NCBI GenBank assembly: GCA_963754875.1
Contig: CAVWHO010000008.1
Location: 224,001-288,000, forward strand
DNA length: 64,000 nucleotides
Direction of reading: 5' to 3'
From: Nitrospirota bacterium
GTDB taxonomy: Bacteria > Nitrospirota > UBA9217
Part shown: piece after piece, positions 8,193-39,068 of the stretch
How the letters are laid out: each line of letters begins with the position of its first letter
How positions within the stretch are numbered: the stretch's first letter is position 1
Notes under the pieces: generated by a model
Seen by the model: the letters and a program-made list of their open reading frames with translations, nothing else
The model's database searches: none
What the model was told of the DNA's origin: nothing
Made by a program: the position numbers and the translations under genes

Positions 8193-8357
8193 CATGTTGC
8201 TGCTGAGGGCACGGAGATGCTGCTAGACTCCACAGCTATTGTAGTACTGCAATCCATACTTCATCTGACCCACTGCCGTACAACGTGAAGTCTGCTCCGT
8301 TGGAGGACCAGCATTTCGCCAGCGGAGCAGATTTGTTAATTAACGCTTCCTTACTCT

Positions 8358-9572: not shown

Positions 9573-9685
9573 TGCAGACTCCTTTGCGCCCCCTAAAGCG
9601 GCGCCCTGTTTTTCCAAACCAATGCTCCGCTGCGAATAGACCGGCCCTTCGATGGACCAGCCTTCCCACTTACAGAACCATTATA

Positions 9686-10198
9686 TCATGTTTTTCCATA
9701 AATATCTTGTTTTTTTATCACCGCGCTGCTTTGGACGGCGTTTCTGCTCCCTCTGTCTCCATCTCCCGAACCGCTGCTCGCCCTGTATTTCAAAGGACTT
9801 CCGCTGTACTCCGACGGGTAAGCCGGGGCATAGGTCGATTCATGAAGGAAGACTCTTTGCCCGATCAGGGGCGCCAGTTGATGAATGACATGCTCCTTGC
9901 TCAGAAACGCATTGGCCCCGGCATCAACGAACTGACGGGCCCTTGCATCTACGCTGCAACCGATAATGAACGAATCCGGAGAAAATCGGCGCGCCAGTCT
10001 CGCTACCTCATCTCCGTTCATCTCCGGCATCAAATAATCGGTGATGATGATTTCGAAGCGCTTTGATTTCATCAAATCGAGGCCGGACCTCCCGCTCTCG
10101 CAGCAGCTCACGTTATGGCCTTCGAATTCCAGAAGTGCTCGAAGCATATCCCTTGTGGTTTTGTTGTCATCGATGATCAAAACATCCAGTCTGCTCAC
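9686..10198 (-). CDS. Single-domain response regulator (CheY-like receiver)
   Basis: VLIIDD, IITDYLMPEMNG and AGANAFLSK motifs; C-terminal tail unassigned. Confidence 0.85.
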   Translation of the reverse strand: MSRLDVLIIDDNKTTRDMLRALLEFEGHNVSCCESGRSGLDLMKSKRFEIIITDYLMPEMNGDEVARLARRFSPDSFIIGCSVDARARQFVDAGANAFLSKEHVIHQLAPLIGQRVFLHESTYAPAYPSEYSGSPLKYRASSGSGDGDRGSRNAVQSSAVIKKQDIYGKT

Positions 10199-10237
10199 GT
10201 CTGTTCTCCCACATTATTACCGAACGTTTTTTTGACG

Positions 10238-13200
10238 TTACTGTCCGCTGAACCACTTTACCGCATCACGAACGCTCACCTGATCGAACTTGAGCCGCAG
10301 CTTGATAAAGGGCCCCTCGCTCGTGAAGTCGGACTGTCGAGAAATCACGGTCTTTGAAGCCCGAGAAATTGTATCCCACACTGACCCAGATGTTTTTACC
10401 GGCGTTGTAACCAACCGATGCCCCGGTGCCGTATATCATCTGGTCAACGCTCCATGAGTGCATCATGAGCTCCCGCAGACCGATGTCCCACTTCTTCGTG
10501 ACATCGTACCTGGCTTCGAGACCGGTGAGGTCGGTGTATCCCCGGTAGTCGTTCTGGTCGATGGTTTCCTGGACATACTTGGAGCCGTACTGCACCGAGA
10601 CCTGCGTTCTATCGTCTGTCCTAATGTTCGCGACGAAGTTATTGACCAGGCGCCAACTGTTGTCCTCAATACTCCCCCCGCCATGCTGATCGTTGAGAAG
10701 ATAATCGAGGCGGTCGAGGATTATGAAGCGCGTCTCTGCAGGACGGTACGCAAGAGAAAGACGGAGATCGCTGTTCTGCTGCATCAGCCCGCTTACTGCT
10801 GCGCTCCGGAACGCCTGCAGTCCCGCGGCAAGACCCAGCCCTTCCGCACCTCACCGTTGGACCCGACGAACACGCCGAACTTGTCCTCCGACGTCGAAAC
10901 ACGGTCCTCGACCCGCGCTGTCCAGGACCACTTCTCCTCACGGTACCCCACGCCGAGAGAAACTGCGGTAAAGTCTTCCGTCGTGCCGACGGCCGGCGGG
11001 ACGTTGGTGTTGAAGATATACGGGGCGGTGCTGCTATCCGTGCTCACGCTCGTATTGCGGAGCGTCGTGCTGCGGTCCAGGCCCGCGTCAACGCTCCACT
11101 TCTTCGTGATCTGCCAGGACTGCTTCAATCCCGTGGTGGAGAAGAGCCGCATGCCGTTCTCCGTTGACTGCTGTTCCATCGTTGAACCGACCTGGCCGCC
11201 TGTCCACGGCGCTGCCTTGATCCCGATCCGGGAGGTCTCGGTGTCGATGCCCGACCCCTGCGTCCATTCCTGGTCGGCGAAGAACGTGGCGGTGTCGCTC
11301 AGTTTGTAGTCCGCGCCGACCGTCGTCTTTGTCGGGAAATCGACATTGTCGTTTGAGCCGACAGACTGATCACGGCTCACGCGCAGCGCGAGCCGTTCGG
11401 TGAGCTGGTACTTCGCGCTCGCAAAAAACTGGTCGGACCGGTAGGACTGGCCCATGCGTGAGCGTATCTTCCGCGCTGCGCACGCCGGCCAGGAGATCGT
11501 ACTTGCCCGACGTGTATCTGCCGCGAAGTTCCGCCATGTCCCGAACCGCGCCGGTGGCGAGAACATTCTGCTGGAACACTTCCCCGCCTACGGACCAGAG
11601 TTTGTCGAGCCGGTAGTTGAGGTCTGCACCGACCTTTCGCGTGCCCGTTTCGCTGTTGTTCTGCTGGCCGAGACCAAAGCCGCTCGATTGTTCGCGCACG
11701 TAAGCCTTCCCGTCCATCTTTTCGGAGCGGTGGGAAAGTTCTGTCAGGTAGGCGGACCCGTCATTCGCAATCCCGTCTTCATTGGTGTTCGATGTGGCAA
11801 TTTCCGTCTTGATCTGCGTATGCTCGTTCACCTTGACGGTGGCGTCGACACCGGTGAGATGTCCGACGCCTCCATTGTCTTCCTCGTGAATGTGCGTGGC
11901 GCCGATCTCGACTTTGTTGTTCAGCACACGCACGGCGCCGCGGCCGCCGTAGGTATAGGAATCTCCGGATGCGCCGAAAATCTCATACCGGACCACGATG
12001 AAGATGGGGTTAAAGTTCGCATCGGTGTTGAACACCGGGGACTTGAAAAAGATGGTGCCGGTATCGTAGTCGATGGAGTAATCGAGATACCGGGCGAGCG
12101 GCTGAGAAGAGAGGATCACCTCGCTCCGGTACCGGTCTCTCGTTTCTATGACCACCGTTTCCGAATTGAGCACGATGTTCTTCCGCGACAGCTGGTAGAG
12201 ACCGGACGTGCCGTCGCCGGGGATCTCGTCCTTTACAAAGGTCTGGTCGTTCTTGCTCGCGAACAGCGTGTAGTTGAAGTGGTCCGACTTCATCTCCGAT
12301 TTGACGCCGGTCATCTGACGGCTGTACCGGGACAATTCAGTCATCGTCAGGCCCGTGTCATAGTCGCCGAAGAGGGCATAAAACTGGTCGCGTTCGATCT
12401 TGACGTAAAGGGAGCGGGAGCTGGCCGCGTCGTTGCCCTGCAGCGTACCATCGCCGTACAGGGTATAGTACTTGTTCGGATCGATGGTTTGATAGAGGCC
12501 GTTCTGGTCGCTGTGCACCGCGTTTGCTGCTGTCGTAGGCCAGGGTAAGCAGCCACTCGCCCTTGATCCTGCCTTTAGCATAGAAGGCCAGACGATCATC
12601 TTCGAAGTACTTGTCATCGCCTCCCCCGGAGCTAAAGGTCTCCATGTTGCCTTTCACTACATTGTATCCCACCGTGCCTTCGGCGAGACCGACCAGGACC
12701 CAATCCCGGTTTTCAGGCTTGAGCCAGGTGCGGATTTCCTGGGTGGTGCCGTCGGCAACCTGGAAGCGAAGGACTGCTTCACCGGTCTGCGTGGTCGGAA
12801 CAAGCTCGATCATCGCCACGCCGTCATCGCCGATGAGATAGCGGTATCTATCGGTATTCGGGGCGATGAGTGGTGATTGTTGAAGTTCATCAGCGCGCTG
12901 CTGGGGAATATACGGAGGATCGATGAAATAATCGGCCCGAACACCCTCCCGGGCAGGGTGCCCATCCTTATCCAGAAGCTGGACTGCAAGAATTATCGGG
13001 TTTTTGCCGTCCGCAACGAGCTTCGATCTCTCAGGCAACAGTACCGCCTTTACTGGCGGCCCTGAATAGTGTACGGTCCGCTGCAACCTCTTGATCTCGG
13101 AACCGGAACCGTCTGAGAGAACGAGTTCGAATCTGTTGTCCCCCTCCTGTAGATGGATCCCGCGCCAGAAACTGATGGCGACAGTGCCGTCAGATTTTTT

Positions 13201-16200
13201 AATCATCCCTTCATAATGAAGAGGATCCACTACGTCGCCATTCAAAAGGAGCTTCGGTTTCTGGCCCGGATCGTGTTTTATGGCAATTCTCATGCTCGCA
13301 ATATTGGGACGGTAGCCATCAACAGGCCAGAGCCACTCCAGCCCCGGGGCTGCTTTTTCTACCCAGGCCGTATCGTAGTCAGGCATGGTCTTATTGTCAC
13401 CAACTGTGTGCATCGGCTCCGATTGTGGATTCTCCACCCATACTTCGCCTTGCGCCAGGCCGGTGACCGGGACGGTCTTCATTCCGCTCGTTTCCTTGTC
13501 GTTGCGGATATAGGTCCAGGCGGAATCCTTGCGGGTGTCGACTCTGAACTCCACGCGGCGGTTCTGCGCCCGTCCTTCTGCGGTCCTGTTTGTCGCAATC
13601 GGATCGTCAGGTCCCTTCCCGACGATCGTGATCTGATCCGGGGCGAGCCGGAGGGCCTCGGCAATGACCTTGGCGACCGTCTTGGCGCGGCTTCGCGACA
13701 GCGCGTAATTATCCGGAAACTCCTTGCTGGCCCCGGGCCGGATAGCGTTGGAATCGGTATGACCGGTAACGGTGATATGCTCGATCTTTCTTGATTTCAA
13801 TTGTTCAACGATCTTTTCTATTTCCTTCCGGTCGCTTTGGGACAGGTCCGCCTTCAGCGTAGTCGAACTTGGGATGGAACACGGCGTCGGGTTCACTCAT
13901 CTGACGCTTCAGCTATAGCGGACAAGGTTCGTGTCAGCCACGGGCGTCTTCACTCCTTTTGCCGCCGGAGTGTCGAAAACCAGGAACGCCTTCGTGGACA
14001 GATTTCCCTCAACGCCCTGCGCCGGCGCTGTCGCGAGGAACACGACGGACCCCTCCCAGCCGGCGGGCCGCTCGCCCAGACGGTAGGTCAGGACGCCGTC
14101 GCCGAGGTCAGGATCAGGGACCCGGCCGTCATTCAGACAGCTGCTTCCCGCCGCGTACGTTACGCCGTCCGGCATCATCACGATCAGCCGGAGATTCCGC
14201 ACAGGGACCGCTCCCACATGCAGGTTGGCCGCGTAGGCGACGGTGTATTGGCCGTTCGCGTCCGGGAGACAGCAATTCTCATGCACGAAGGGCACCATGG
14301 CCGCATAGTCGTTATGGCCGTTCACGTCCGGCCTCGCGGTCCCGGTCTGGACCGTGGCCGGGGAATTCTTCTTCAGTTCGCCGAAGCAATGCGCGCCGAA
14401 GGTCCACGTCAGGGCCGTAGCCAGGGAAGCCCCCGGCTCAGCGTCGGCATGGTTGATCGACCCGGTCTGGGTCGTGACCAGGGAAGTCCGCAGCTCAAGG
14501 CCGACCTCGCCGGTCTGCTTCGCCTTCGGAGGGCGGGGCGCAAGATGGAAATCGGCCCTCCACAGCGACCCGCCCTGCAGGTCCACGAACTGCGAAAATG
14601 GCCGAGCCCGCAAACCGGGTGTTGTCCTCGCACTGTTCAGGCTCATATTGCTCGGGCACGTGACCCGTATCGAGCTGCACCACGTGGGTCCCGGCCTGAA
14701 CAGCCGCGAAGTGGTACATCCCGTTCTTGTCGGTCACGACATAGGACCCGTCCTCGAGGAAAATGCGGACCCCCGCGATGCCGCGCCCGTTGTCGCCGCA
14801 GCCTTCGAGGACTCGGCCGACAATGGTCGTTTTGCTCATAAAGAGGTCCTCGGTCACCAGCACCGTGGCCGCGGCCGTGTTGGATACCGCGCCGAGCGAG
14901 CCGCTGGCCACGGCCGTGTTGACGGCCTTTCCGAGGCTCGCCCCCGCGCCCACCTCGGCCACGTAGGTGATGACCGCTTGTCCCGCAGCAACGAGATCGC
15001 CGACGCATAAAGGTGAGGCTCCGGCCGTCTGCGGAGATCGCGGGATCGGGTCCCGGCACGCTGTTCAGCCGCACTGAACCCTTACGGTACCGGAAGCCCA
15101 CCGGCAACCGGTCGGTAATGGTCACTCCCGGCGCCGGTGCGCTGTTATCAATGTTCTCCACCGTGAGCTGATAGGGAACAAAGTCTCCGATCGCCGCAGA
15201 GTCCTTTGCTGCGGACTTTGATCAGGTAGAGCCGCGAGCTTATCGGGTCCGCGGGAATGTCGATATGGATCGCGGGACCGGCGTTCACCACGAACTGCTC
15301 GTCCCGCGACCCGGGGTCCACAATGGCAAAGGGCCCGCCCGACAGGGCCTGCAATGCGGCCGTGGCAACGGTGGAGGGCGCCCGGTATCCCGCGGGCGGC
15401 CGGACGTCGAGACGATAGTTTCCCGGCTTGATGAACGGGAAACGGTATCCGCCCGGCGACATAGGAATAGACCTTTCCGCTGCTGTCCACGGCCGTTCCG
15501 CCGGTGGTCACGTGGCCGGGAAGGTCGCGACACCGTCATCGCCGTACACGCTGGCCGGACCGCCCGTGGACGACGTCCACGAGGGTGACGGTAAGCGCCG
15601 TCAACAGGCTGGCCTGTCGAGCTGTTGAACACGATGCCGTAGGGATCGACCAGCGCTGCGATGGAATGCGTGTCCGTCGGGTCCACGGCATCGGTGTAGG
15701 AGGCCGTAACGCGCGAGTCGTTCACCATGTTCAGAAGACCGTTGTTGCTCGCGACGGGTTGGGAACTGGACTGTATAAAGCCGATGAACACGCCGGTGTT
15801 CGGCCCGGTCTCCGTGAGACGCAGCACTTCCGTGTCCCCGGTCTTGTCGTCGTGGACGGTCACCACGACCGTTTCCGCGACGGCGGGATCGTTGTTCTGG
15901 TCTCCGTCGGTCAGGCGTATGAAGACCGGCTCGCCCGCGTGATACTGCGTCGCCGGGACGAGCGGTACCGTGCTGGGTGAGATCGATGGGCGCGGTAGAT
16001 CCTGCAGGAACCGGCGCGCCTAGAGGCACGAAAGGGTCCGGCCAGGCTTCCGCTGGGACTGTAGGACGTCGGCGGGACCGGAACGAGCTGCGCGCCGGGC
16101 GTCGTCGGGCGCGTACTGGAGGAATTCAATGACCGCTGTGGTCCGCTGGACCGTGGTCGTCACCGATACGGTGTTCGACGCTGCGGTCACAAGACTCCCA

Positions 16201-16436
16201 GCGAAGCCATTGGTATACGTTGCATTCGCGATGTTGCTGATGATCGTGCCGGATGGCGTGATCGACCATCCGGCGGATGAAAACAGATGGATGAATAGGA
16301 ATGATAACAGAAAAATAACGAGGAAAGAAGAAACAGGGACCGCTCCGGCACGCGGACGCACCACGGCCGTGGCTTCACCCGGACGGATGCAGCCCTCGCC
16401 GTTTCTTGCGCGATATGTGTTGAAGCAGTCCCTCAT
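10238..16436 (-). CDS. Giant outer-membrane protein (signal peptide, DUF11/SdrB-like domains, OmpA-like peptidoglycan-binding domain, C-terminal beta-barrel), split by about a dozen frameshifts
   Basis: Consecutive ORF fragments join into one protein of ~2000 aa: DUF11 (ITDRLP...AVNTAVA), OmpA (GHTDS...RAQNRRVE), amphipathic beta strands; reconstructed end IKLRLKFDQVSVRDAVKWFSGQ with stop at 10238. Confidence 0.8.
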
Positions 16437-16448
16437 AAAGTATCAATC

Positions 16449-16473
16449 TCCCCGCCCCTCATCAGGGCGGGGA
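16449..16473 (-). terminator. Intergenic stem-loop after the putative major subunit gene (mRNA stabiliser or partial terminator)
   Basis: tccccgccc (16449-57) / gggcgggga (16465-73) 9-bp stem; no U-run. Confidence 0.5.
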
Positions 16474-16486
16474 ATATCACATCTCC

Positions 16487-17590
16487 TTATTGGATAACAA
16501 CCTGATATTTGATTGTGGCGGTAGTTCCTTGAGCAACGGTGAGGCCGGAAACCGTCATTTTGCCCGCAGTAAAATCAGCGCCATCAGCATCACTTGCGTT
16601 CGTTTTGCAAACATTATTCACGACGATACCCGACCCTGCAGCACACGGGCTGGTACCGTCATTAAACTGGGTGTTAAAGGCGATATACCCATTGGGGGCA
16701 TTAATCATAGCACTCAAGTCGTCCGTGATTACAACATTGGTCGCGTCAGCAGCGCCTAATGCGTTGGATACTGTTACGGTGTACGTGACAACTGCTCCAG
16801 GTATCGCCTTGGGGTTCCCGCCTGTACTTGTAGAACCGCTTATGGGGTCCGAATACACAGTAGCCGTCTTGTTTATGGTCAAGCCTGCGGCGGTAACTGT
16901 AAAGCGTCCGCTTGCGGAATGTTTTCCGTCGTGCAGCCCGTCACCAGTAGCGGTCCCTGCTGCGTCGCCGAATATCGTCATTACAACATTGAGATTGGCG
17001 GACTTGAGCCCGGCAGTCTGGGTAGAGGGGGTCAAGGTCCCCGCATCGACCGCTGTTGCCAGGAGGTCGTAATCCGTATATTGAGCATTTGTAGCGGTGG
17101 CCGGTATGTCACCGACGACCAGTACGGTGAAGGTTGCGCCTGACGCGATGTCACCGAAGGTGCTGGCATCAGTGTACAGTGTATCGCCGGCGTCGTATTG
17201 GCCGTTACTGTTGTTATCACGATAAATCTTCGCACCGGTCAAAGACCATGTGTTTGTCGACTTCGACACGGGTGACAGCGCAAAACGCATGGCCGTGTTG
17301 CTGCTATTTGTCACGAGGAACTGGATCGCCTGGTAGGTTGAGCTCGGGGCGCTGGTCACGTCGCTTTGTTTCGTGACGGTCAAGTAGATCACTCTGTCAA
17401 CCATGAAGGTGACGGTGTTCCCCAGCACCGCGGTTTGCGCTACCGTGCCGACCGTATAATTCACTGTTGCCTGGTTCGAGATGGAGACCCCTGCGGCCGT
17501 GTTCGCGGCCTGCGCGAACTTCGGGACCGCCAGGGCAATCGCCGCGAACAGCACTATTGCCGCTATCCTATACATACTTTGCTTCTTCAT
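16487..17590 (-). CDS. Secreted DUF11-domain pilin-like protein (putative major subunit)
   Basis: ATG 17590 with GGAGG RBS; signal peptide ending AQA; Ca-binding-like DNNSNGQYDAGD; C-terminal DUF11 (INKT..IPGAVVTYTV..ITDDL); paralogue of 18283..19332. Confidence 0.8.
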   Translation of the reverse strand: MKKQSMYRIAAIVLFAAIALAVPKFAQAANTAAGVSISNQATVNYTVGTVAQTAVLGNTVTFMVDRVIYLTVTKQSDVTSAPSSTYQAIQFLVTNSSNTAMRFALSPVSKSTNTWSLTGAKIYRDNNSNGQYDAGDTLYTDASTFGDIASGATFTVLVVGDIPATATNAQYTDYDLLATAVDAGTLTPSTQTAGLKSANLNVVMTIFGDAAGTATGDGLHDGKHSASGRFTVTAAGLTINKTATVYSDPISGSTSTGGNPKAIPGAVVTYTVTVSNALGAADATNVVITDDLSAMINAPNGYIAFNTQFNDGTSPCAAGSGIVVNNVCKTNASDADGADFTAGKMTVSGLTVAQGTTATIKYQVVIQ

Positions 17591-17769
17591 TGTTTCCTCC
17601 TTGTTTTTTAAATACGGTAATGTAAATTGTTTCAAATTATCGTTCTCAACATGTCAGGTTTCCTTTCCACATCCTAAGAATCATTCGCATAATACGTCTC
17701 CGCTCTTATGTCCTTGAAAAGCAATTTCCGTTTTTCCATGATCATATCCTCCAAATTGAATTTAATCGT

Positions 17770-18270
17770 CTACTTAATCTTGGCCTTGAAAGAAACACTG
17801 CCCGAACCTCCTGCGGGGAGCGGCCTGGTCAGTGTCCACCTGATGCCGTTGTAGTCTTCCGCTCTGGCCTGGCGCACCATTCCCTGGGCGTTCTTGATTA
17901 TCAGTTTCTCCGGCGCGTTGTAGGTCTTCCCGCCGTCCGTTGAAAACTCGATGCGGGTGTTGTTCCCTTCCGCGCTGCCGTCGAGATAGGTCATATGCTC
18001 GTCAATGGGATTGGTGATTACAATGCCGTCGGCGGGCCGCTTTCCGGTGTTGGTATAGTGCGTCGTAAAGATCACCGTGTCTCCCGGCACCGTCGTCGCT
18101 TTCGCGACATCTACCCGTTTAACTAACTTCTCCCCTTTTTGGTTTTTCTCCGCAACCTCGACTTGCGCGACAGACTTGAGCACTATTGCCCCTTTCTGCT
18201 GCGCCCACGCCGCCATCGGCGCCAATAGCGCCAGCGTCAAAACCACCTGTAATATTTTTTTCATCGTCAT
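17770..18270 (-). CDS. Small secreted single-DUF11 protein
   Basis: Signal peptide ending AWA; VPGDTVIFTTHYTNTG..VITNPID..VSFKAKIK. Confidence 0.8.
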   Translation of the reverse strand: MTMKKILQVVLTLALLAPMAAWAQQKGAIVLKSVAQVEVAEKNQKGEKLVKRVDVAKATTVPGDTVIFTTHYTNTGKRPADGIVITNPIDEHMTYLDGSAEGNNTRIEFSTDGGKTYNAPEKLIIKNAQGMVRQARAEDYNGIRWTLTRPLPAGGSGSVSFKAKIK

Positions 18271-18282
18271 CTCCTCCCTCGT

Positions 18283-19332
18283 CTATTTGATCTTCACATC
18301 AAAAGTTATCGTCTGTACTGGCGAAGCGTTCGTCAGATCGCCAAGTTTTACGGTCACCGTATTGGTCGTTGTGACTCCCACGTCCCCGGCGTCCGTGTCC
18401 GCCGCGTCGGTGAGGGCCGTGTTGTTCAGCCGGAGCGAATTAGCGATATATGTCGTGTTCACCGGCAGCGGATCGCTGATCACGACGTTTGTGGCTGTCC
18501 CGCCGCCCGTTGTCGTTGCCCCGATCGTGTACCGGAGTGTCGCTCCCGGGATGGGCTGGTTTCCGCCCCATTGGTCAAGGATTGTTACGGTCTTATTCAC
18601 GTTCACTTTCAATGCCGCGGTGGTCACGGTAAAGGTAGCGGCCGCGGAGTGTTTTCCGTCCCGCGCCCCGTCGCCGGGGGCGCTTCCCGCAGCGTCCAGA
18701 AACACCGTGTCCACTCCCGCGGTGTCGGGCCCGCTGGTCGGGGTGGAAACATTCAAGGTGCCCGCATCGACCGCCGTTGCCGCAAGGTCGTATGCTGCAG
18801 TCTCTCCGACCGTCAGGCCCGAAGGCGTATCGGCGACAATCAATACGGTTATCGATGCGCCGGTCGCAACGTCTCCAAAAGTGCCTGCGTCCGCATAGAG
18901 GGTGTCTCCCGCGTCCCAGGTGCCGCTGCTGTTATTGTCGCGAAAGATGCGCACATTGCTCATCGTCCACGTGTTCGTAGCCTTCGACACGGCCGCAAAG
19001 GAGAAACGCACGGCCGTATTGCTCATATTGGAGACGAGGAACGACACAGCCATGTTGTTCGAGGCCGGCGAGGTATTCACATCGGCGTTCTTGGTCACGA
19101 CCACGTTGACCACCCGGTCAACCATGAAACTGGTGGTCACGGACGTCGCGGAGCTTCCAACGCCGCCGAGAGTATACCTCACGGATGCAGTGTTCGTGAC
19201 AGCCGTGCCCGCGGCCGTGCCCGCGGCCAGGGCGTTGCCGGACGTGAACAGACACCCGATGAGGAATGCGACGATCGCCCAAAGGGTGCGCAATCTGGAT
19301 GCCCCTTTATTGTTGTGCGGAGTAGAATTCAT
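18283..19332 (-). CDS. Secreted DUF11-domain pilin-like protein (second paralogue)
   Basis: ATG 19332 with GAGGA RBS; signal peptide ending ALA; RDNNSSGTWDAGD; C-terminal DUF11 (VNKT..IPGATLRYTI..ISDPLP). Confidence 0.8.
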   Translation of the reverse strand: MNSTPHNNKGASRLRTLWAIVAFLIGCLFTSGNALAAGTAAGTAVTNTASVRYTLGGVGSSATSVTTSFMVDRVVNVVVTKNADVNTSPASNNMAVSFLVSNMSNTAVRFSFAAVSKATNTWTMSNVRIFRDNNSSGTWDAGDTLYADAGTFGDVATGASITVLIVADTPSGLTVGETAAYDLAATAVDAGTLNVSTPTSGPDTAGVDTVFLDAAGSAPGDGARDGKHSAAATFTVTTAALKVNVNKTVTILDQWGGNQPIPGATLRYTIGATTTGGGTATNVVISDPLPVNTTYIANSLRLNNTALTDAADTDAGDVGVTTTNTVTVKLGDLTNASPVQTITFDVKIK

Positions 19333-19370
19333 TCGGTCCTCAGTCACGAACAGCTGTCCACAAGATCTTC

Positions 19371-22300
19371 TCAATTGAGCTGCACCCTGAATTTGACGGT
19401 AAAGTTGGCATTGCCGCCGTTCAATGTCCCTTCAGGATTGATACAGAGACCCTTCACATTTGCGTCAAAATTGCCCGTCGGCGAGTAGGTGAAGTTGCCG
19501 CATGCATTGGGCGGAGCCAGAACCGCAGGAAGCGGATACGTAGTTGTATATTTCACGTCGCTTCCGTAACTGAACGTAAGTCCGCAGGCCGGCGACGCGC
19601 TGCACGAAAATAAGACGGGATCGCCGGAGACCGTGGAGACATACAGGGTCGTATTCGTGGGAATGGGGTCCGTAACAACGACGGAACTGCCGTCCGCGAC
19701 GCCGGTCCCGCTGTTCGTCACGGTTACGGTATATTCCAACACGGCGCCGGGGATGGCCCTTGCGCTGGTCGTTACCCCGCTGACGGGATCGGAGATGACC
19801 TGCACGGACTTCAGGACCATGATGTTCGGCATCAGCCCAACTCGGAACGTGCCGGTCCCAAGGTCCGAGATGGTACCTTCCGTTCCCTCGTTGGCGGTGA
19901 CGTTCACTGTCCAATAGCCGGTCGGGCCTGCTGCGGGTACGGTGTAGGCATACTCGTAGGTTTTGGTGCCCGTGGTAGAGGTAACGATGTTCGTCAGCGT
20001 TACTGCGCTCACGATGGCATTGTTGTTCGGGTCCTTGATCGTGATCTTCGTCGAGGAGATGTCGAAGGCACCGAAGGGATCGCTCACAGCTGTCCGCACA
20101 TAAACGGTCTGTCCGCCGATGTAGAAGCCGGAGACCGGGGTAGTCACGGCCGGATAGGCCGCACTGTAAGCGTTGACGCTGTTCACGCCGATCACGTTCT
20201 GAGAGGGCAGACTGACATTGGAAATGTTGCCACCGTTGGCCGGGGTAACGTTCACTCTGCGCGTGGTGCTTGCGGCACCGCTATTGGTGACTCTCAATAC
20301 CCAGGAGTTGCCCGTCGCGCAGGACATCGCAGAGGTCAGGGGCAGATTGAAGGGATAGGATGTCACCGTCCCCGTGAGAGCGAGGGTCCGGGACTGCGTT
20401 ATCAGCGTTCCCGGCGTCGCGGAACAAAACAGATCGACGATTACGGTGTAATTGTTACTGCTGTTGGTCGAGAGATTGAGGGATACCGGCACAGTGGCGC
20501 CGACAGCCGGGGAGATCGTGACCGGGGAGGCCAGGACTGGCAGTTCGGTCCAGCTTTGCGACGAACCCCTGTTGATCGCGACCAGCGGAGGCGCTCCCGG
20601 GGTAGGCGTTCTCGAAAGTGAGTAAGTCGGCGCGCTGTAAAGATACAGCGGCTTGCTGCCCGTCTGAGCAATGGACGAGGCCGACACCGTGATCGTCGGC
20701 GCTGCGGGCGCTGCGCCCGGACCTCCGGGGTTCGTGATCATTGCAGTATTGTCGATCGACGTGCCCGCTACGGTCCCGCCTGCTATCGTAGCAGATACGA
20801 CAATCGGGACATTCCCGTCCGCAGGGACCGATATGTTGGAAACCGTGAGCACTTGACCCGCAATATTGCACATCGCGCCCGAGGGACAGCTTGCTAATAA
20901 ACCCGTCAGCGTTGTAGGAAAGGTGTCCGTCACCGAAACTCCCGGGGCTGCCATGTGACCCGTCTCCTTCAGCATGATCGTGTACTGAATTACGTCTCCC
21001 GGGTTCTGGTCGCCGCCGTTGAGGTCTATCCATGTTTTTGTCGAAGTGGAAAGATCGGAGGGGACGGAAACGCTCACCGTGGCGCTGTCGTCGCTGGAGT
21101 TGTAGTCCGTAATTGCGCCCGGGACGACGAGGCTTGCGGTATTGCTGAGCAGGCTGGGAGCGCCAGCGCCCACGGTCCCGTTGATCGTATAGGTGACATA
21201 TCCGTTCTTGGGGAGGTTGGCGGTGGTATTGATGGCATTCCCGCTCCCCGAGGCCGCCCCGCAGGTTCCGCCTCCCGATCCCGCGCAGGTCCAGGCGACG
21301 CCGGTTATGGCCGCCGGCACGGTATCGAGTATGCCGACGCCGGTCGCCGTCACGTTGTTGGGGCCCGTATTGCTGGCGATGACGGTATAGCGGATCTGGT
21401 CGCCCACCGAAGCTGTTGTCGTCGATCCGGTCGTAATGTCCAAGAACGTCTTGGTGATCGCGAGGTCGATCGCCGAGGTCGTGTTCTGGTCGGTCACGAT
21501 CAGGTTGCGGATCTCGTGATAGTTGGTGGATCCTCCGGTGCTGGCGGCATAGCCGATCTTAAGCTGCTGCGTTGTCGTGATCGCCGGGAGCGCCTGGTTG
21601 GTGATCATCTGGGTAAAAACAAGCGGAGAGCTGTAACCGAATGAGACCCAGACATTGGCGACGGGATTGGGCGCCGGGCTGATCTGGATGCGCACATGGC
21701 GGTAATTCGGGCCGGTCTGAGAAGGTCTTGGCGAGCCGTTGAACCACAGCAGGCCGTTGTTAGCAGAGGTGGCGATCCAGGGATAGGACGCGGCTGACAG
21801 CGTTTGCCCAATGGCCCCTGCACCAAAACCGACCACGGAGCCCCGAAGCGTGATAGTATTTGGGACTGTATTGCTGTTGCCGTAGGCGCTGAGATACCGT
21901 CCTTCGCCGCAGTCGGCGAAATTACCGTATTCATCCACGCCGATCCCGATATAGCCGCCGCTGATCCCGGGAACATTTGAAGGAGCGGGGTTGCCGCAGG
22001 GACTGGTCGTCAGTTTCTGAGCATAACCAAGAGAGCCGCCGAAGGCGCCGATATTGAAGGCACCCACATTCGCGTCGAAGAGATAGACGCTGTAGCCGTC
22101 TGCGCCGGTCCCCCCCCAAGTGGCGTAATCAAACTCGACAAGGAGCCCAGCACTCAGGTCAAAGGCCGTGGTGTTGTAGGCAAACCCGGTCTGGTTGCCC
22201 GTATTGTTCGTCAGGCGCAGCCATCCCTGTCCCACCGGATCAATGGCGCCGCTTCCCGTCAGAATGGTGCCCCCCCCAAGGGTCCAGCCCGCGCTGTTCG

Positions 22301-22430
22301 TGTCGGTCATCGGTGCGTTGATGATGATTGCAGCTGAGGCATTCCCGGCAAGGCCCAAACTGAGGACAACAAGAATAAGGACCAGTATCCTCCGCGTTGA
22401 GTGAACAGCTGATGAAAAATGGCGGTACAT
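19371..22430 (-). CDS. Secreted adhesin with N-terminal L-type (legume-like) lectin domain and three DUF11 domains
   Basis: GWLRLT..GADG..GSLGY..IGVDEYGN..GYAASTGGSTNYHEI lectin motifs; DLAITKT, DLSTSTKT and VLKSV DUF11 starts. Confidence 0.82.
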   Translation of the reverse strand: MYRHFSSAVHSTRRILVLILVVLSLGLAGNASAAIIINAPMTDTNSAGWTLGGGTILTGSGAIDPVGQGWLRLTNNTGNQTGFAYNTTAFDLSAGLLVEFDYATWGGTGADGYSVYLFDANVGAFNIGAFGGSLGYAQKLTTSPCGNPAPSNVPGISGGYIGIGVDEYGNFADCGEGRYLSAYGNSNTVPNTITLRGSVVGFGAGAIGQTLSAASYPWIATSANNGLLWFNGSPRPSQTGPNYRHVRIQISPAPNPVANVWVSFGYSSPLVFTQMITNQALPAITTTQQLKIGYAASTGGSTNYHEIRNLIVTDQNTTSAIDLAITKTFLDITTGSTTTASVGDQIRYTVIASNTGPNNVTATGVGILDTVPAAITGVAWTCAGSGGGTCGAASGSGNAINTTANLPKNGYVTYTINGTVGAGAPSLLSNTASLVVPGAITDYNSSDDSATVSVSVPSDLSTSTKTWIDLNGGDQNPGDVIQYTIMLKETGHMAAPGVSVTDTFPTTLTGLLASCPSGAMCNIAGQVLTVSNISVPADGNVPIVVSATIAGGTVAGTSIDNTAMITNPGGPGAAPAAPTITVSASSIAQTGSKPLYLYSAPTYSLSRTPTPGAPPLVAINRGSSQSWTELPVLASPVTISPAVGATVPVSLNLSTNSSNNYTVIVDLFCSATPGTLITQSRTLALTGTVTSYPFNLPLTSAMSCATGNSWVLRVTNSGAASTTRRVNVTPANGGNISNVSLPSQNVIGVNSVNAYSAAYPAVTTPVSGFYIGGQTVYVRTAVSDPFGAFDISSTKITIKDPNNNAIVSAVTLTNIVTSTTGTKTYEYAYTVPAAGPTGYWTVNVTANEGTEGTISDLGTGTFRVGLMPNIMVLKSVQVISDPVSGVTTSARAIPGAVLEYTVTVTNSGTGVADGSSVVVTDPIPTNTTLYVSTVSGDPVLFSCSASPACGLTFSYGSDVKYTTTYPLPAVLAPPNACGNFTYSPTGNFDANVKGLCINPEGTLNGGNANFTVKFRVQLN

Positions 22431-22574
22431 CAAATGATGCCCCCTCCTGCCGAGCGTTTTACTGAAACTTCACGCGCACAGTTATGGCGTTATAGCGTTC
22501 TACAAAAAATATCTGATAAATCTGTAATTCGGCAATCCCCCCCGGGGTTGGCGGACTACAACTAAGGTAAGACA

Positions 22575-22603
22575 ATTTTAGGATAAATATTATTTTTTGT
22601 CAA
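22575..22603 (-). promoter_or_regulatory. sigma70 promoter of the DUF11 operon
   Basis: TTGACA (22603-22598), 17-bp spacer, TAAAAT (22580-22575). Confidence 0.75.
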
Positions 22604-22992
22604 TACATTTTTTTATGGTATTGCATTTTATTGTAACCCTCTACAGCGCCTAAATAGGTAATTTAGAACAAAATAAGGCATTTCAAGAATAATTCGGTCA
22701 GCTTTTGAACAACCAAATTGCTGCACTTTCCACATCTGCCGGAAGAAAGGGTTAAATTGTACTGGATAGAGAGAAGCTGGATTGGGAATACAGAATGTTG
22801 TGATACTTGAATTACTTGGAGTCGTTATGCGGGTCCTGAAAAACAAAAAGAAAGAAGATGGTCGTTGAAATATATGTTTTTTATATTTCAGAGCGTTGTA
22901 ATAAGCGCTCACATGCGTACGGCGATTTTTATGACCAAAAAGGGCTAAGGTTATTTTGGCCAAACTATGACCTCCTTCATTATCATCTGTAC

Positions 22993-23640
22993 TCACGATG
23001 ATTTATGCTTATGAAATTCTTTTCGCAACTCACGGAAAGATTCAAACCATGATTTTTTCACATCATCTGGCCATGAAGGATCAAAATCAGGAAATTTATT
23101 TAACCAGACTTGCTCAGATGATATGGTTTTTTCAGCTTTTATTACCTTAGATTCATCTTGTTCAATGCTGGAAAATTTAAATTTTTTGATATGCGGTGAT
23201 AGTTCTATCCCCGTATATTTTGCTGCAGCTAAGAAAAACGCTACACTTTTTCTAATGGTCCCACCAAAGGCACCAGCTTTCTCAAAACAGAGCTGTAAGT
23301 CTTTCGATGTGGCACTTTTTAGATCAAATCCTTCACTAAATAAAAAAGGATAGGATGCAATTATGATCTCTCGGAGTATTGTCTTTTTTTCTTCTTCAGA
23401 TGCTTCAACTAATTTATGGAATTTTTCAGTTGGAATACCATCGTGTCCTGACATTAAGTGAAAATATTTTAGAGTCGTAATAAGTTGAGCCTGGGCAGCA
23501 CTGGAAAAAGAACTCAAGGTCTTAATATTGCGGTCAATCTTATTTGGTACACCAACTTTTGCCAGCCCCTCAATAAAGTTAAGAAAGGTGTTAAGGGAGA
23601 GGTAAGGTGGGGTTAGTATCTTATCTTTAATTTTTTCCAT
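22993..23640 (-). CDS. DUF5343-like protein in an AT-rich islet
   Basis: PPYLSLNTFLNFIEGL..VPNKIDR..FFLAAAKYTGI..KFPDFDPSWPDDVKKSWF; composition much more AT-rich than flanks. Confidence 0.65.
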   Translation of the reverse strand: MEKIKDKILTPPYLSLNTFLNFIEGLAKVGVPNKIDRNIKTLSSFSSAAQAQLITTLKYFHLMSGHDGIPTEKFHKLVEASEEEKKTILREIIIASYPFLFSEGFDLKSATSKDLQLCFEKAGAFGGTIRKSVAFFLAAAKYTGIELSPHIKKFKFSSIEQDESKVIKAEKTISSEQVWLNKFPDFDPSWPDDVKKSWFESFRELRKEFHKHKSS

Positions 23641-23658
23641 ACAAAAGTCTTCCTGAAA

Positions 23659-23718
23659 ATATTCCGTATAATCCTTTTATATCAGATACGCATATTCCTG
23701 TCAAGAGGAATATATTCC
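23659..23718 (-). promoter_or_regulatory. sigma70 promoter of the DUF5343-like gene, overlapped by ATATTCC boxes
   Basis: TTGACA (23704-23699), 17 bp, TATAAA (23681-23676); palindrome GGAATATATTCC at 23707-23718. Confidence 0.6.
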
Positions 23719-24176
23719 ATTTTTTATTTTTTTCCAATATGCTTTATGAACCGACAGCGTATACTGTTAAAATTATTAACTTACAGGAAATAAAAGGTTG
23801 GACTGATGTTATATAATATTCCATATATTCCAACATTCCATCTATTAGAAAAAATGAATATTCATTTTAATAGAGAAAATATTCTTTTGTGCCGACTTTT
23901 TTGTAATATTTTTTATACAGAAAGGAAATATGCTTTAGGAATGGCGAGAGAATTGTCAGGCCTTAAAAGGAAATGAACCTTTACAGCAGAATGTAGAATG
24001 TAATGAGACCGACAGCAAAAAAATATTTAATGTTACAAAAGACGTATGATGAAACCTGCCAGTTATGCACGTCAAGAACCACGCGTCAAGATGCAGGGCA
24101 AACTGGCATGTTTTCGTCGATCGAACTTTTATAAAATAAACGAGAATAGCCAAGAAGAATGACTACAGCAGCATCT

Positions 24177-25031
24177 TCACGAAAGATCGCTGCCCCAAGA
24201 TTGGAAGGCGTTCCCTTTTTCATCGAGCTTGCAGGCAAGCAGGTAAGGATCATGATAAAAGGTAAACCAGGCGCCGTTATCGATTCCGATCTTAATCCAC
24301 TTTTCCTTCATTGCAATTGAATCCATGGGATAGTTATCATAGGCCATGACCCACAATGGGTTAGCATGTGCATGCGTGGGGAAAAGATCGCCAAGGTGCA
24401 ACGCAGTTTCTGCTTTTGATTTCATGTGTACGATCTGGTGCCCGCTGTTGTGCCCCCCCGTATGGACAACTGATATCCCCGGGACGACCTCTGCTTCTCC
24501 GTTCACCAGTTCGAGCTTGTCGTTTCCCTTCATCAGTTCTATGTTTACGGGCCAATACGTGTTAATGGACCTTGCATTCGGGCTCAACACGCCCTCCCAC
24601 TCCTTTTTTTGGAGTATGTGTTTCGCCTTTGGAAAGGTGAGAGCAAGCCGGCCAGTTTCGTCCTGCATGATAACGCCTCCCGCATGGTCGAAATCATAAT
24701 GAGTCAGAATGACGAAATCGATGTCCGTGCGCGAGATGCCGAGTTGATCAAGCTCTTGGAGAACGGACCATTCCTCCTTGACGAGGAAGATATTCTTCTG
24801 TTTGTCCGTCAGTTTATTCCCGAGCCCCGTCTCAATGAGCACGAGGGCACCCGGCGTCTTTACCAGGATGGGCCATGCACTGAGGCTGATTGTGTTCTCA
24901 TCGGTCGCCGGATATTTCTTCTGCCAGAGCACCTTCGGCACGACACCGAACATTGCTCCGCCGTCCAGCTCGAACCTGCCGCCGTTCAGCCACGTCAGTT
25001 CAAAATCACCCAACCGGAATCCTGTTTTCAT
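24177..25031 (-). CDS. MBL-fold metallo-hydrolase (YtnP-like)
   Basis: LDGGAMFGVVPK, THYDFDHAGG and FYHDP motifs. Confidence 0.88.
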   Translation of the reverse strand: MKTGFRLGDFELTWLNGGRFELDGGAMFGVVPKVLWQKKYPATDENTISLSAWPILVKTPGALVLIETGLGNKLTDKQKNIFLVKEEWSVLQELDQLGISRTDIDFVILTHYDFDHAGGVIMQDETGRLALTFPKAKHILQKKEWEGVLSPNARSINTYWPVNIELMKGNDKLELVNGEAEVVPGISVVHTGGHNSGHQIVHMKSKAETALHLGDLFPTHAHANPLWVMAYDNYPMDSIAMKEKWIKIGIDNGAWFTFYHDPYLLACKLDEKGNAFQSWGSDLS

Positions 25032-27359: not shown

Positions 27360-30068
27360 CTACGGTCCGTGCATGAGTTCCCGTAGTACATACGGCAGAA
27401 TTCCCCCATGCTGATAATAATCGACCTCGATCGGGGTATCGATCCGCGACAGCAGCTTGACTTCCTGGCGAACTCCCCCGTGTCTTTTGACGAGAAGGCT
27501 GATTTCCTGTTGCGGCATCAGATTGTTCAAGCCGACAATATCGAACTCTTCATCTCCGATGAGCCGCAGTGATTGGACGGAATCGTTGCCTTTGAACTGC
27601 AGCGGCAATACGCCCATGCCTACGAGGTTGGAACGGTGGATACGCTCGAAGCTTCGTGCAATAACGGCGCGCACTCCGAAAAGTCTGGTGCCTTTGGCTG
27701 CCCAATCACGCGATGATCCTGTCCCGTATTCTTCTCCACCGAAGACCACCGTCGGCGTGCCTTGGGCCAGATATTTCATTGCAGCGTCATAGATCGACAT
27801 CTGCTCTCCGCTGGGCTGAAACAGGGTAATGCCGCCTTCCACGCGCGCGCCGTCTGCCTTCGGGAGGCACCATGAGGTTCTTGATGCGCACGTTCGCGAA
27901 GGTGCCGCGAATCATCACATCGTGATTGCCCCGGCGCGTGCCGTAGCTCTGAAAATCGGTCTTGGCACGTTGTTTTCGAGCAGGTATTTTCCCGCGGGAG
28001 TGGTCTCCTTGATGGAGCCTGCCGGACTGATATGGTCGGTCGTGACCGAATCGCCGAAGATGCCGAGCGCCCGGGCTCCGAGCGATGTCGTTGACGCGCC
28101 CGGCTGCATCGAGAAGTCCATGAAGAACGGAGGTTCCGCAATGTACGTGGATTTCGGCCAGTTATAGACTTCCTCGGAAACCGAGGCCACGTTGTTCCAC
28201 AAGACATTGTCCTTGGTGAAGTCCGCGTAGAGACGCTGGAAGGTTTCCGGGTCCGTGGCATACTTCATCACGGACGCAACTTCGGCATTGCTCGGCCAGA
28301 TGTCTTTGAGGTAGACCGTTGCTGCCGTCCTTGCCGATGCCCAGAGGATCTTTCTCCATGATTCATGAGCACGGTCCCGGCTATGGCATAGGCCACGACA
28401 AGGGGCGGGCTCATCAAAAAGTTGGCGCGCAGGTTCGGATGGATGCGCGCTTCGAAGTTGCGGTTGCCGGAAAGGACCGATGCGCAGACGAGATCATTCT
28501 GCAGAATGGCCTCTTCCGTCCCTTCATCCAGGGGGCCTGAATTGCCGATGCAGGTGGTGCAGCCGTAGGCAACGATATTGAAACCGAGCTTTCCAGGATA
28601 AGGCAGGAGACCGGCTTTTGCAGATATTCGGTCACGACTCGCGAGCCCGGCGCAAGGGACGTCTTGACGTGCTTTTTTACGACGTGCAGGCCTTTCTCCA
28701 CAGCCTTCTTTGCCAGCAGACCGGCAGCGAGCAGCACCGCACGGATTGGAGGTGTTGGTGCAGGAGGTGATGGCGGCGATGATCACATCTCCGGAGCCGA
28801 TGTCTATGCCGTCCTTTGTTTTGAAGCGCGCTGCAATGTCTTCGGACTTCTTTGCAAATCCGTTTTCCGTTGTCGGCTTGACGAATAATTGGGACATCGT
28901 ATTTTTCAGAGCGGGAAGTTCAATGCGGTCCTGCGGGCGTTTCGGCCCTGCAACGGAAGGTTTGATCGAAGAGAGGTCGAGTTCAAGGGTCCGCGTGTAA
29001 TCTATCTCTCCGGCCTTCGGGAATGCCGTACATTCTCTGGGCTGTGTAATAGGACTTGCAAGCGGCGACTTCCTCGTGAGTACGTCCGCTGCTGCTGAGG
29101 TACTCGACGGTCACGTCGTCGATCGGGAAGAAGCCCATGGTCGCGCCGTACTCCGGCGACATATTCGCGATCGTGGCGCGGTCAGGCACGCTGAGGGATG
29201 CGGTGCCTGATCCGAAAAATTCGACAAAGGCGCCGACGACCTTATTTTTCCGGAGCATCTCGGTGATGGTCAGCACGAGGTCGGTGGCAGTGACGCCTTC
29301 CCGGAGTTTTCCGGTCAGGTTCACCCCCACCACATCAGGAGTTAGGAAGTAGAGCGGCTGACCGAGCATACCCGCTTCCGCCTCAATGCCTCCCACGCCC
29401 CAGCCGACCGAGCCGATACCATTGATCATCGTCGTATGGCTGTCGGTGCCGACGAGCGTATCGGGATAGTAGACATCGTTCTTGTCATGCACGCCGCGCG
29501 CCAGGTATTCAAGGTTCACCTGGTGAACGATGCCGATGCCCGGCGGGACTACCTGGAAGGAATGGAATGTGTTCATGCCCCACTTCAGGAACTCGTACCG
29601 TTCCCGGTTGCGCTTGAATTCCATTTCCATATTGATCCGAAGCGCATCAGGATTTCCGTAGGAGTCTATCTGCACGGAGTGGTCCACGACCAGATCGACA
29701 GGGACGAGCGGTTCGATGATGCCCGGATTTTTGCCCATCCTGCGGGCCGCGCCGCGCATTGCCGCCAGATCGCACAGGAGGGGTACGCCGGTAAAGTCCT
29801 GGAGCAGGATGCGTGCAACGACAAAAGGAATTTCCTCTATGCGCCGTCCCTGGGGCGACCAGGCAGCAAGCTGTTTAACGTGATCTTCTGTTATCTTCTT
29901 GCCATCGTAATTACGCAGCACCGATTCGAGCACGATCCTGATCGAAACGGGCAAATGCGAGATCATGCCGATCCCCGCTTTTTCCAGAACAGGCAGGGAA
30001 TACAATTTCCCCTTTTTCCCGTTGCCCAGGCTGAAATCTCGGAGCGTATTGAAGAGATTATGGGTCAC
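27360..30068 (-). CDS. acnA: Aconitate hydratase A, interrupted by several frameshifts
   Basis: [51 protein letters not shown] and [10 protein letters not shown] motifs spread over overlapping ORF fragments. Confidence 0.88.
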
Positions 30069-30190
30069 TGTGTCTCCATTTTTTATCGCACGAAGGCACG
30101 AAGCCACAAAGAAGTACACTGAAAGGCAGGTGATCCTCCCCTTCGTGGCTTCGCGCCTTCGTGTGAGACCGACTGCATCTGTTTTTTGGT

Positions 30191-31642: not shown

Positions 31643-31751
31643 GCTGTTCTTTTTTCCTTTCGATGTGTGATTATAGTTTAAACCGATAGAGGATGGACGC
31701 AATTTCTTTTTCGTCCCTCGTCCATCCTCCATCCTCCCTCATCCCGCGTTT

Positions 31752-32921: not shown

Positions 32922-32922
32922 G

Positions 32923-33810
32923 TTATTTTTCCTCCTTGGAAAATATTTTATCGAGCTTTTCTTCGAAAGCATGGTAATCAAGGTAATCATAGAGATCGGC
33001 ACGGGTCTGCATGAGGTTGATCACGTTTTTCTGGGATTCTTCCTTGCGGATCGTGCAATAGACCGTCAGCGCGGCCTTGCTCATGGCCCGGAACGCGGAC
33101 AGCGGATACAATACGAGGGAGACATCGACGCTGCGCAGTTCTTCCACCGAATAGAGCGGCGTTGCGCCGAACTCGGTGATGTTGGCGAGGATCGGCACCT
33201 TTACCGCCTGGGCGAACTTCTTATACATGACAAGATCGGTTATCGCCTCGGGGAAGATCATGTCCGCACCGGCTTCGACACATGCCTGTGCACGGTCGAT
33301 CGCTGCTTCAAGCCCCTCCACGGCGAGAGCGTCTGTTCTCGCCATGATGACGAACTCCGAATCGGTCTTTGCATCGACCGCCGCCTTGATGCGGTCCACC
33401 ATTTCGTCTTTGCTGACGATTGCCTTGCCGGGTCGGTGGCCGCAGCGTTTCGCCTGTACCTGGTCTTCGATATGCACGGCGGCCGCCCCGGCTTTGATCA
33501 TGGATTTTATCGCACGCGCGATGTTGAAGGCGCCGCCCCATCCGGTATCGATGTCAACAAGCACGGGAAGATCCGTGTTATCGGTGATGCGCCGAACGTC
33601 AGTCAGGACGTCTTCCATTGTGGTGATGCCGAGGTCCGGAACGCCGAGCGATCCGGCGGCAACGCCGCCGCCCGAAACATAGAGCGCTTTGAAACCCGTG
33701 CGCTCTGCCAGGCGCGCCGCATACGCATTGATCGCGCCCACGACCTGTAATGGTTTTTCTTCACGTAGGGCCGCCCGAAAACGGCTGCCCGGTGATATCG
33801 GTCTTGTCAT
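32923..33810 (-). CDS. prpB: 2-methylisocitrate lyase
   Basis: KRCGHRPGK active-site motif; DIDTGWG. Confidence 0.96.
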
Positions 33811-33935
33811 GCCAGAATCCTCCTCAGAACAATTGATGTTTTATCATCTCGCTACCATTGTTTCAACTGCTTCAACGGCATGGAACGAAGTATCGAGAAA
33901 AAATGACCGATATATAGAATGGCGACATTAGTAAG

Positions 33936-39067: not shown

Positions 39068-39068
39068 G

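Follow-up and report, generated by a model that had tools for sequence, protein, structure and literature searches.

What becomes of a secreted protein whose last domain ends before the strand that should complete it, when several such proteins are encoded side by side? The question is raised by an operon of five minus-strand genes from a Nitrospirota bacterium (assembly GCA_963754875.1, contig CAVWHO010000008.1), found in the 64,000-nucleotide stretch from 224,001 to 288,000, hereafter the window, in which all positions are counted. The domain, DUF11 (PF01345), is now called CLIPPER, and in structure 9IFR Lys715 and Asn806 are bonded within the chain, with Asp748 close by (PMC12617251). In the operon, the terminal CLIPPER domains are cut in the loop before the Asn strand, which is carried at the N-terminus of other proteins. 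We put at about 0.7 the probability that this cut domain builds a surface fibre.

The genes encode, in order, a putative tip adhesin (19371..22433, 1020 residues), a first subunit, A (18283..19332), a small secreted DUF11 protein (17770..18270, 166 residues), a second subunit, B (16487..17590), and an anchor fused to a barrel (10238..16436). The third of these (18270-17770) went unmentioned in the original prediction for this locus, although it lies inside the interval described there. All five proteins begin with what reads in the sequence as a signal peptide; in the alignments the signal peptides end in Ala-x-Ala and show no lipobox Cys. The first four match DUF11 or TIGR01451: the adhesin, subunit A, and the small protein score 74.1, 24.9, and 25.8 bits against PF01345 (curated cut-off 24.6), and subunit B scores 32.6 against TIGR01451 (cut-off 24). 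The adhesin is composed of a signal peptide, a weak L-type lectin-like head, two complete CLIPPER domains, an MG2-like domain, and a C-terminal acceptor half; N-termini are highly variable among 28 related adhesins. Its two complete domains, described earlier, do stand in the minus-strand translation, the first at 21045..21476 (residues ~320-463, PF01345 matching 323-455) with Lys, Asp, and Asn in cis, and the second at 20667..21053 (residues ~461-589). Subunits A and B each consist of a donor hairpin following the signal peptide, a middle immunoglobulin (Ig) domain, and an acceptor half.

As had been proposed, the C-terminal CLIPPER domains of the adhesin and of both subunits keep Lys and Asp and stop before the Asn strand, and this strand comes directly after the signal peptide in the two subunits and the anchor. 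With codon coordinates derived by hand from open reading frame (ORF) starts and alignment numbering, the acceptor Lys and Asp are located at 19811-19809 and 19670-19668 in the adhesin (half-domain of 154 residues, 19374..19835; its Lys is invariant in alignment A4), at 18594-18592 and 18474-18472 in subunit A, and at 16870-16868 and 16723-16721 in subunit B (half-domain 16885-16490). The donor Asn is located at 19194-19192 in subunit A (hairpin 19117..19224, mature residues 1-36), at 17476-17474 in subunit B (17506-17399), and at 16235-16233 in the anchor (16150..16262). The acceptors had been thought to lack a single donor strand; the Asn strand is missing, but so is a second one, and the donor is a hairpin of ~36 residues.

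We compared 76 related loci, comprising 129 subunits, 29 adhesins, 50 full-length anchors, and 66 small proteins, the window's own proteins being counted where intact (four of 70 small proteins, frameshifted or duplicate, were removed before counting; the 30 adhesin-class rows of the donor-profile scan became 29 in the residue counts after removal of one misclassed subunit; five longer proteins whose middle domain is of the subunit type were kept apart, four of them uncounted and the fifth being that misclassed row). The C-terminus falls exactly five residues past the last core aromatic column in 122/129 subunits, 29/29 adhesins, and 65/66 small proteins, a shared endpoint that is more than a product of chance. 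The acceptor Lys and Asp are both kept in 128/129 subunits and 29/29 adhesins, and the N-terminal donor Asn is present in 120/129 subunits and 48/50 anchors; in a separate set of 122 close homologs, Lys and Asp are each found in 122, and Asn in 113 of the 120 that have a residue there. Complete internal domains carry all three residues in cis (Lys in 102/104, Asp in 103/104, and Asn in 104/104, the last figure being partly built in because these domains were selected for full profile coverage), with Lys near the start, Asp ~35 residues later, and Asn near the end, whereas the terminal domains, ending before the Asn strand, do not hold the three together. Alignment A2 contains 117 of the 120 listed homologs and the two window subunits, and alignment A5 contains 51 of the 58 first subunits and that of the window.

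The two parts also tile the complete domain: the subunit acceptor profile covers columns 13-97 of its 135 columns (probability 98.6), up to the acceptor's own C-terminus, and the donors cover columns 105-118, with no overlap. A donor profile built from nothing but the Asn strand found in complete internal domains recognized, at a threshold of 9 bits, the N-termini of 30/129 subunits and 23/50 anchors; none of the 30 adhesin-class and 66 small-protein N-termini passed it, and shuffles passed at 1.0-2.6%, in agreement with the earlier statement that the adhesin has no donor. Conversely, the anchor yielded no truncated CLIPPER domain, the sole one detected in it being complete. Because adhesins lack a donor and anchors lack a detected acceptor, completion could take place only in trans. 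The split of the domain is real and general: the polarity first proposed, with an acceptor-only adhesin, subunits bearing both donor and acceptor, and a donor-only anchor, holds across many phyla among the 76 loci, and the order subunit, small protein, subunit, anchor, whether or not an adhesin gene precedes it, is found in 45/76 of them. The system is present in Nitrospirota, which include the closest named relatives of the window operon, Desulfobacterota, Alpha- and Gammaproteobacteria, Campylobacterota, and Verrucomicrobiota, with a related operon in Thermus, and is patchy in its own phylum (a match in 18 of the 201 genomes searched). Profile searches collected 1,490 clusters (50% identity) at E<=1e-30 and 6,847 at 0.001. 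At the top of that search stood P0121, a protein of 5697 residues with 50 stretches matching the subunit profile, which is probably a giant tandem adhesin.

Structure models point in the same direction, indirectly in the case of the monomer. The AlphaFold2 model of mature subunit B (predicted local distance difference test, pLDDT, 96.1) comprises the hairpin (strands 8-15 and 27-35), the middle domain (37-207), modelled as a whole Ig fold, and the last domain. Residues 38-339 align with the tandem antigen I/II domains of 4Z1P (Z 6.9, root-mean-square deviation [rmsd] 4.9, 210 aligned), and the two domains also align together to consecutive integrin calf domains, both templates being elongated. 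The last domain matches GBS104 (3TXA 183-680; Z 6.7, rmsd 2.8, 97 aligned), a range that stops short of the isopeptide Asn692 of 3TXA (PMC12617251). No meaningful match came from searching solved structures by sequence with either subunit, with the adhesin, or with the two complete adhesin domains, and 9IFR was absent among the matches listed in the fold searches.

In a complex model of full-length mature subunit A, with its own acceptor present, and the last domain of the adhesin, the subunit A hairpin enters the adhesin domain, which is the strand insertion anticipated by the original prediction. The complex scored 0.85 against 0.00 for the best of three controls, with contacts at least 98% alike between runs and a partner pLDDT of at least 93; the mark applied was reached by 116/157 solved pairs and 2/215 mismatched ones, figures that apply only roughly to our own alignments. 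The predicted interface brings residues 1-38 of subunit A and a few middle-domain loops against residues 2-62 of the adhesin domain; strand 13-18 runs antiparallel to 51-56, residues 35-36 contact 26-29, and Asn11, Lys9, and Asp56 are all within the interface lists. We observed besides that Asn/Asp-rich conserved loops of the middle domain (69, 163-176, 188) contact the conserved acceptor loop 13-29 of the adhesin in this model, and such contacts may form a calcium-bound rigid joint; middle domains lie at 19117-18619 and 17398-16886 of the window. Covariation links residues 2-8 of the hairpin with the near pole of the middle domain in the same subunit (ranks 6, 9, 19, and 23). Taking these data together, we regard complementation in trans between chains as very probable.

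Several observations weigh against the fibre or reduce what the counts above can carry. The 76 loci include 21 Sphingopyxis-like kin, so that the counts overstate independence, and no adhesin is visible in the fetched DNA of 28 loci. Taken alone, the donor profile match is weak (probability 2-3%, E 0.013-0.023), and donor-acceptor covariation, computed by a mean-field method at an effective depth of 259, is weak as well, its best pairs ranking 42, 52, and 81 of 39,429. The complex model covers one joint, that of the subunit A hairpin with the adhesin acceptor; Asn11 is paired with neither Lys9 nor Asp56 among the 25 best pairs, and partners that are two halves of a known fold tend to score well by resembling solved CnaA-type domains. 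The donor Asn is absent from 7/58 first subunits, six of these losses being real by inspection, while the adhesins at four of these six loci retain Lys and Asp, so that either some tip joints are non-covalent or the order of subunits can vary. Finally, the best fold match of the anchor barrel (Z 17.8, rmsd 9.0, 336/947 aligned) does not imply export.

The losses of Asn bear on the chemistry of the joint. A covalent link between chains appears probable to us: the Lys-Asn isopeptide bond of the original prediction is supported by the conservation of the residues and by analogy with the solved intramolecular CLIPPER bond (PMC12617251). Trans complementation might instead be mostly non-covalent, with Lys and Asp serving folding or packing and the bond slow or absent. 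Such a joint would account for the six first subunits that lost Asn opposite adhesins with Lys and Asp, and in the comparable fibre protein BsaA of C. perfringens, N35A oligomers are still resistant to sodium dodecyl sulphate when unboiled (PMC11580942). This explanation is nevertheless unlikely, given the near-invariance of Lys and Asp in subunits and adhesins and of Asn in second subunits (57/58) and anchors. The small protein provides a further argument. It has the shape of an acceptor and carries no donor; in the window it has no Lys, and Asn replaces Asp. Among the 66 small proteins, encoded between the subunit genes in most loci, Lys is found in 0/66 and Asp in 3/66, with Asn in the place of Asp in 61/66. 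Because the same shape persists after the loss of Lys in 66/66, the fold needs neither Lys nor Asp, and their conservation elsewhere thus argues for a chemical role. The small protein itself may be a reversible cap for free hairpins which prevents premature locking, a function to which we give even odds; the suggestion that it is nearer to the adhesin acceptor than to the subunit acceptor was dropped (probability 97.1 vs 97.3).

The same chemistry could also produce a short fixed stalk, in which a single adhesin, a single subunit A, and at most a few copies of subunit B stand on the anchor, so that only the length would differ. The anchor looks as if a barrel had been joined to the C-terminal part of a giant adhesin, and a barrel-fused donor could end chains early. 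Against these points, subunit B has both halves and could repeat, its donor Asn is the best conserved (57/58, as opposed to 51/58 in first subunits), and a strong RNA hairpin lies between its gene and that of the anchor (16448..16474, minus strand; -22.9 kcal/mol, z -4.5). RNA hairpins with z<=-2 follow the second subunit in 29/58 loci (12/39 without the 21 Sphingopyxis-like loci), compared with 4/28, 7/58, and 6/64 at other junctions, and the element may raise the expression of subunit B over that of the anchor. We therefore find a short stalk doubtful; from the donor Asn counts and the RNA hairpin, subunit B is probably the major shaft subunit and subunit A a tip adaptor.

That each hairpin folds back in cis, closing a circularly permuted or discontinuous domain of its own chain without any polymer, was the refutation foreseen by the original prediction, and it failed in the one complex that was modelled, where the hairpin chose the other chain over its own acceptor. 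Folding back could draw on the hairpin pLDDT above 90 in the subunit B monomer model and on the existence of discontinuous CnaA domains such as 3TXA 137-211 + 587-717 (PMC12617251), but it leaves acceptor-only adhesins and donor-only anchors unexplained, and in the model of subunit B, linkers of 2-4 residues separate the hairpin and the two domains, which are in line; we judge it highly improbable. Least credible of all is that seven strands already make the truncated domain a complete fold, serving as a barrel-binding or export signal and unrelated to the Asn hairpin: its pLDDT above 90 alone, the existence of seven-stranded CLIPPER_2 domains (PMC12617251), the stand-alone small protein, and a C-terminus fixed sharply enough to act as a signal would fit, but donor and acceptor tile a complete domain, Lys and Asp persist, buried, in domains that have no Asn strand of their own, and the groove is filled in the complex model.

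Assembly of the preferred fibre may be pictured as follows. All five proteins would be exported to the periplasm through their signal peptides, the cleavage of which would free an N-terminal hairpin of two strands, its Asn lying at mature position 11 in the subunits and at a like position in the anchor. The small protein would cap free hairpins until locking. Each hairpin would then enter another molecule and complete its last domain, which is open and has seven strands, as modelled for one joint and by extension at the others, and the acceptor Asp would catalyze an inter-chain Lys-Asn isopeptide bond as in intact CLIPPER. The resulting chain would read adhesin, subunit A, many copies of subunit B, anchor, its polarity following from the sequences and its order and copy number being our inference. 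Such a chain would rebuild the N-to-C layout of a giant single-chain adhesin in a modular form with an exchangeable tip. The anchor barrel would pass the folded fibre outward and its own hairpin would end the chain, much as if an usher carried its own terminator; between growth from the tip and growth from the base, we lean slightly towards the former. The model put forward originally, the polarity of which is well supported, lacked the second donor strand, the small inactive acceptor, and the barrel.

The anchor gene (10238..16436) encodes the donor hairpin, Ig domains, a complete CLIPPER domain, an SdrD_B-like region, an OmpA (peptidoglycan-binding) domain (13558..13854, PF00691), a further Ig domain, and an outer-membrane beta-barrel region (10241..12710). 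It is broken into several frames in this assembly, whereas relatives at loci L001 and L002 encode it as one ORF of 2061-2076 residues. Among the matches listed, related-strain contigs from two studies show single-base insertions or deletions relative to the window at or near 10338, 11456, 13860, 13914, and 14659, and unrelated window genes are also fragmented. Given intact relatives, indels at the breaks in other strains, and other broken genes, the frameshifts are probably assembly errors, as judged from sequence comparison, and a true pseudogene is unlikely, given the same intact relatives and single-base differences. The complete CLIPPER domain quoted for the anchor in the original prediction (14850..15235, limits approximate) is complete indeed, but its reading crosses a frameshift. 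An aconitase-like gene at 27360-30119, named by reading of its translation, is apparently also in several frames, which fits indel errors.

Pfam matches of the anchor are SdrD_B-like and OmpA, with a DUF11 match in the genome search; OmpA is optional in relatives, its columns being occupied at ~0.4 across the 50 anchors. The last 947 residues of the L001 anchor were modelled with a pLDDT of 80.3 and show ~40 long strands after the Ig domain. Fold matches of this barrel are generic (SlpA, FimD, and SprA, with FimD on top as a partial match over 336 of the 947 residues), and the nearest Atlas clusters share no Pfam family. We slightly favour an export pore as its function. With ~40 modelled strands it would exceed SprA, a 36-strand barrel; an SprA-like barrel was considered and is not supported, SprA ranking below SlpA and FimD with a TM-score of 0.15-0.17.

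The same genome contains a giant single-chain adhesin with many CLIPPER-like domains and one frameshift (L077:2670-17289; C20, about 30700-45300). Residues 278-612 of the anchor match the C-terminal part of this adhesin (E 8.5e-22), and after its gene comes a separate one encoding OmpA repeats and a barrel akin to that of the anchor. This pair resembles an unsplit two-gene form, possibly a two-partner export system. Because the anchor resembles the C-terminal part of the giant adhesin plus a barrel, the operon reads as an adhesin cut inside its CLIPPER domains and joined to the barrel at its base. Other arrangements were also observed. In loci L017, L022, L024, and L032, the order is subunit, long subunit, small protein, anchor, the long variants (654-776 residues) having a donor, a middle domain, extra domains, and an acceptor-type end. 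On pTT27 of Thermus thermophilus HB8 (L078:11430-24480), a related operon with a small protein encodes an 888-residue subunit (donor and terminal acceptor), a separate donor-bearing protein of 897 residues, and a 1795-residue protein matching the barrel profile weakly (11.7 bits), so that the anchor is apparently in two genes.

How does this system compare with known fibres? In chaperone-usher pili (FimH-FimG/F-FimA-FimI, FimC, FimD), as in the operon, an incomplete Ig fold is filled by the N-terminal extension of a neighbour, the tip adhesin has no donor, and there are an outer-membrane barrel and a small periplasmic helper; both the neighbour-completed fold and the tip adhesin without extension are found here, at the level of the model. 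Chaperone-usher pili are, however, non-covalent and use one donor strand and a strand-donating chaperone, and their usher FimD is 24-stranded, whereas here the barrel has ~40 predicted strands, the helper is acceptor-shaped, and the last donor is fused to the barrel. No PapC/FimD usher family match was obtained on the barrel fragments and no PapD-like chaperone family match, the sole small gene being the DUF11 acceptor-type one. Sortase pili are covalently linked between subunits and need an enzyme and an LPXTG motif; no sortase match was found among the 16 ORFs of 8358-23640, and the subunits end on a beta strand, without an LPXTG tail. The type V pili of Bacteroidota have a lipoprotein precursor and a C-terminal donor strand, unlike the proteins described here, which have no lipobox Cys and an N-terminal donor and so do not belong with them. 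SpyTag/SpyCatcher is an engineered split CnaB domain in which a Lys-Asp pair re-forms the isopeptide bond, whereas the operon would hold a natural CnaA-type Lys-Asn pair.

A precedent in chemistry is BsaA, a member of the TasA family that polymerizes by autocatalytic isopeptide bonds in a 'donor-strand exchange and lock' (PMC11580942); the concept of the original prediction had thus already been published, and was overlooked there. BsaA likewise has an N-terminal donor Asn, an acceptor Lys, and a catalytic acid, and its split of residues between chains is matched here by sequence and by one complex model, with Asp replacing Glu. It differs in having the TasA fold, a single-domain subunit, a Glu catalyst, the SipW peptidase, and a monoderm host (PMC11580942), as against a CLIPPER fold, a two-strand donor, an Asp catalyst, a spacer Ig domain, diderm hosts, and a barrel of its own. 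The subunits gave no TasA/camelysin Pfam match at E 0.1, and no SipW signal peptidase was found among the same 16 ORFs. The Sulfolobus thread Saci_0406 also combines donor-strand complementation with an apparent inter-subunit isopeptide bond, but this archaeal bond joins Asn57 to the N-terminal amine of subunit n+2, without a Lys-Asp triad (PMC9715654); the Lys-Asp-Asn set conserved in our sequences points to another chemistry. Litorilinea GhlA forms a visible surface filament of 49 DUF11 domains as beads, but it is a single polypeptide, and its available text mentions neither donor nor isopeptide (PMC13319060, 10.1101/2025.08.19.671072). CLIPPER itself, the same family by Pfam and TIGR01451 and with the same Lys/Asp/Asn spacing as 9IFR, is published as a tandem stalk domain of single-chain adhesins with an intramolecular bond (PMC12617251), whereas here terminal domains are cut and the Asn strand sits on another protein. 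The word 'donor' is absent from the main text of that paper, and its supplements, which list domains without bonds, may bear on split domains (PMC12617251). TLP-1 (PMC11494351), tafi (PMC11821415), and Pam pili (PMC13278184) were considered as solved relatives; all use donor strands, but no tie to DUF11 was seen in the texts consulted, and the 'DUF11' matches in the tafi paper are to DUF1102 (PMC11821415). No account of a split CLIPPER/DUF11 operon was found in the literature searched, mostly without subscription papers or supplements, and no paper was found for TIGR01451 or for the presumed Thermus locus tags. A donor strand with an isopeptide lock is already known, from BsaA and, with other chemistry, from the Sulfolobus thread; the split CLIPPER form was not found in this literature. 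The system is BsaA-like in chemistry and chaperone-usher-like in layout, and lacks defining traits of both families.

As for the surroundings of the operon, the best of five candidate promoters in the region upstream of the adhesin gene is a sigma-70-like site (22575..22603, minus strand), assigned by consensus match at 11/12 positions; shuffles average 4.6 sites at the 9-of-12 threshold. No Rfam family, hence no riboswitch, was found in 8000-24500. Just upstream of the promoter lies a DUF5343-like gene (22628-23640) in a low-GC stretch (40% in 22001-24000). Downstream of the anchor, 8358-10198 on the minus strand encodes a response regulator and a protein that has four cyclic di-GMP-binding stretches of the MshEN type and is probably lipoprotein-like in its second half. 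Loci L001 and L002 have a similar gene after that of the anchor, and a link to cyclic di-GMP is possible.

It is tempting to go further and see in this operon a new class of Gram-negative pilus with its own secretion route, a natural split-isopeptide polymer locked without sortase, although we hold this wider view tentatively, at somewhat less than even odds. The catalytically dead acceptor would then separate the subunits by 'acceptor exchange', a mirror of the chaperone in chaperone-usher pili, the ~40-strand barrel would export the fibre and carry the terminating donor, and the whole would have originated from a giant single-chain CLIPPER adhesin cut into modules. The related operon on pTT27 belongs to a cultured organism, T. 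thermophilus HB8. If the fibre is as we propose, its halves would provide natural Lys-Asn tag-and-catcher pairs for protein engineering, thousands of proteins now labelled 'DUF11' or 'hypothetical' would gain a function, together with an unnamed family of very large barrels, and diderm bacteria of many phyla would possess covalent adhesive fibres that require neither sortase nor ATP.

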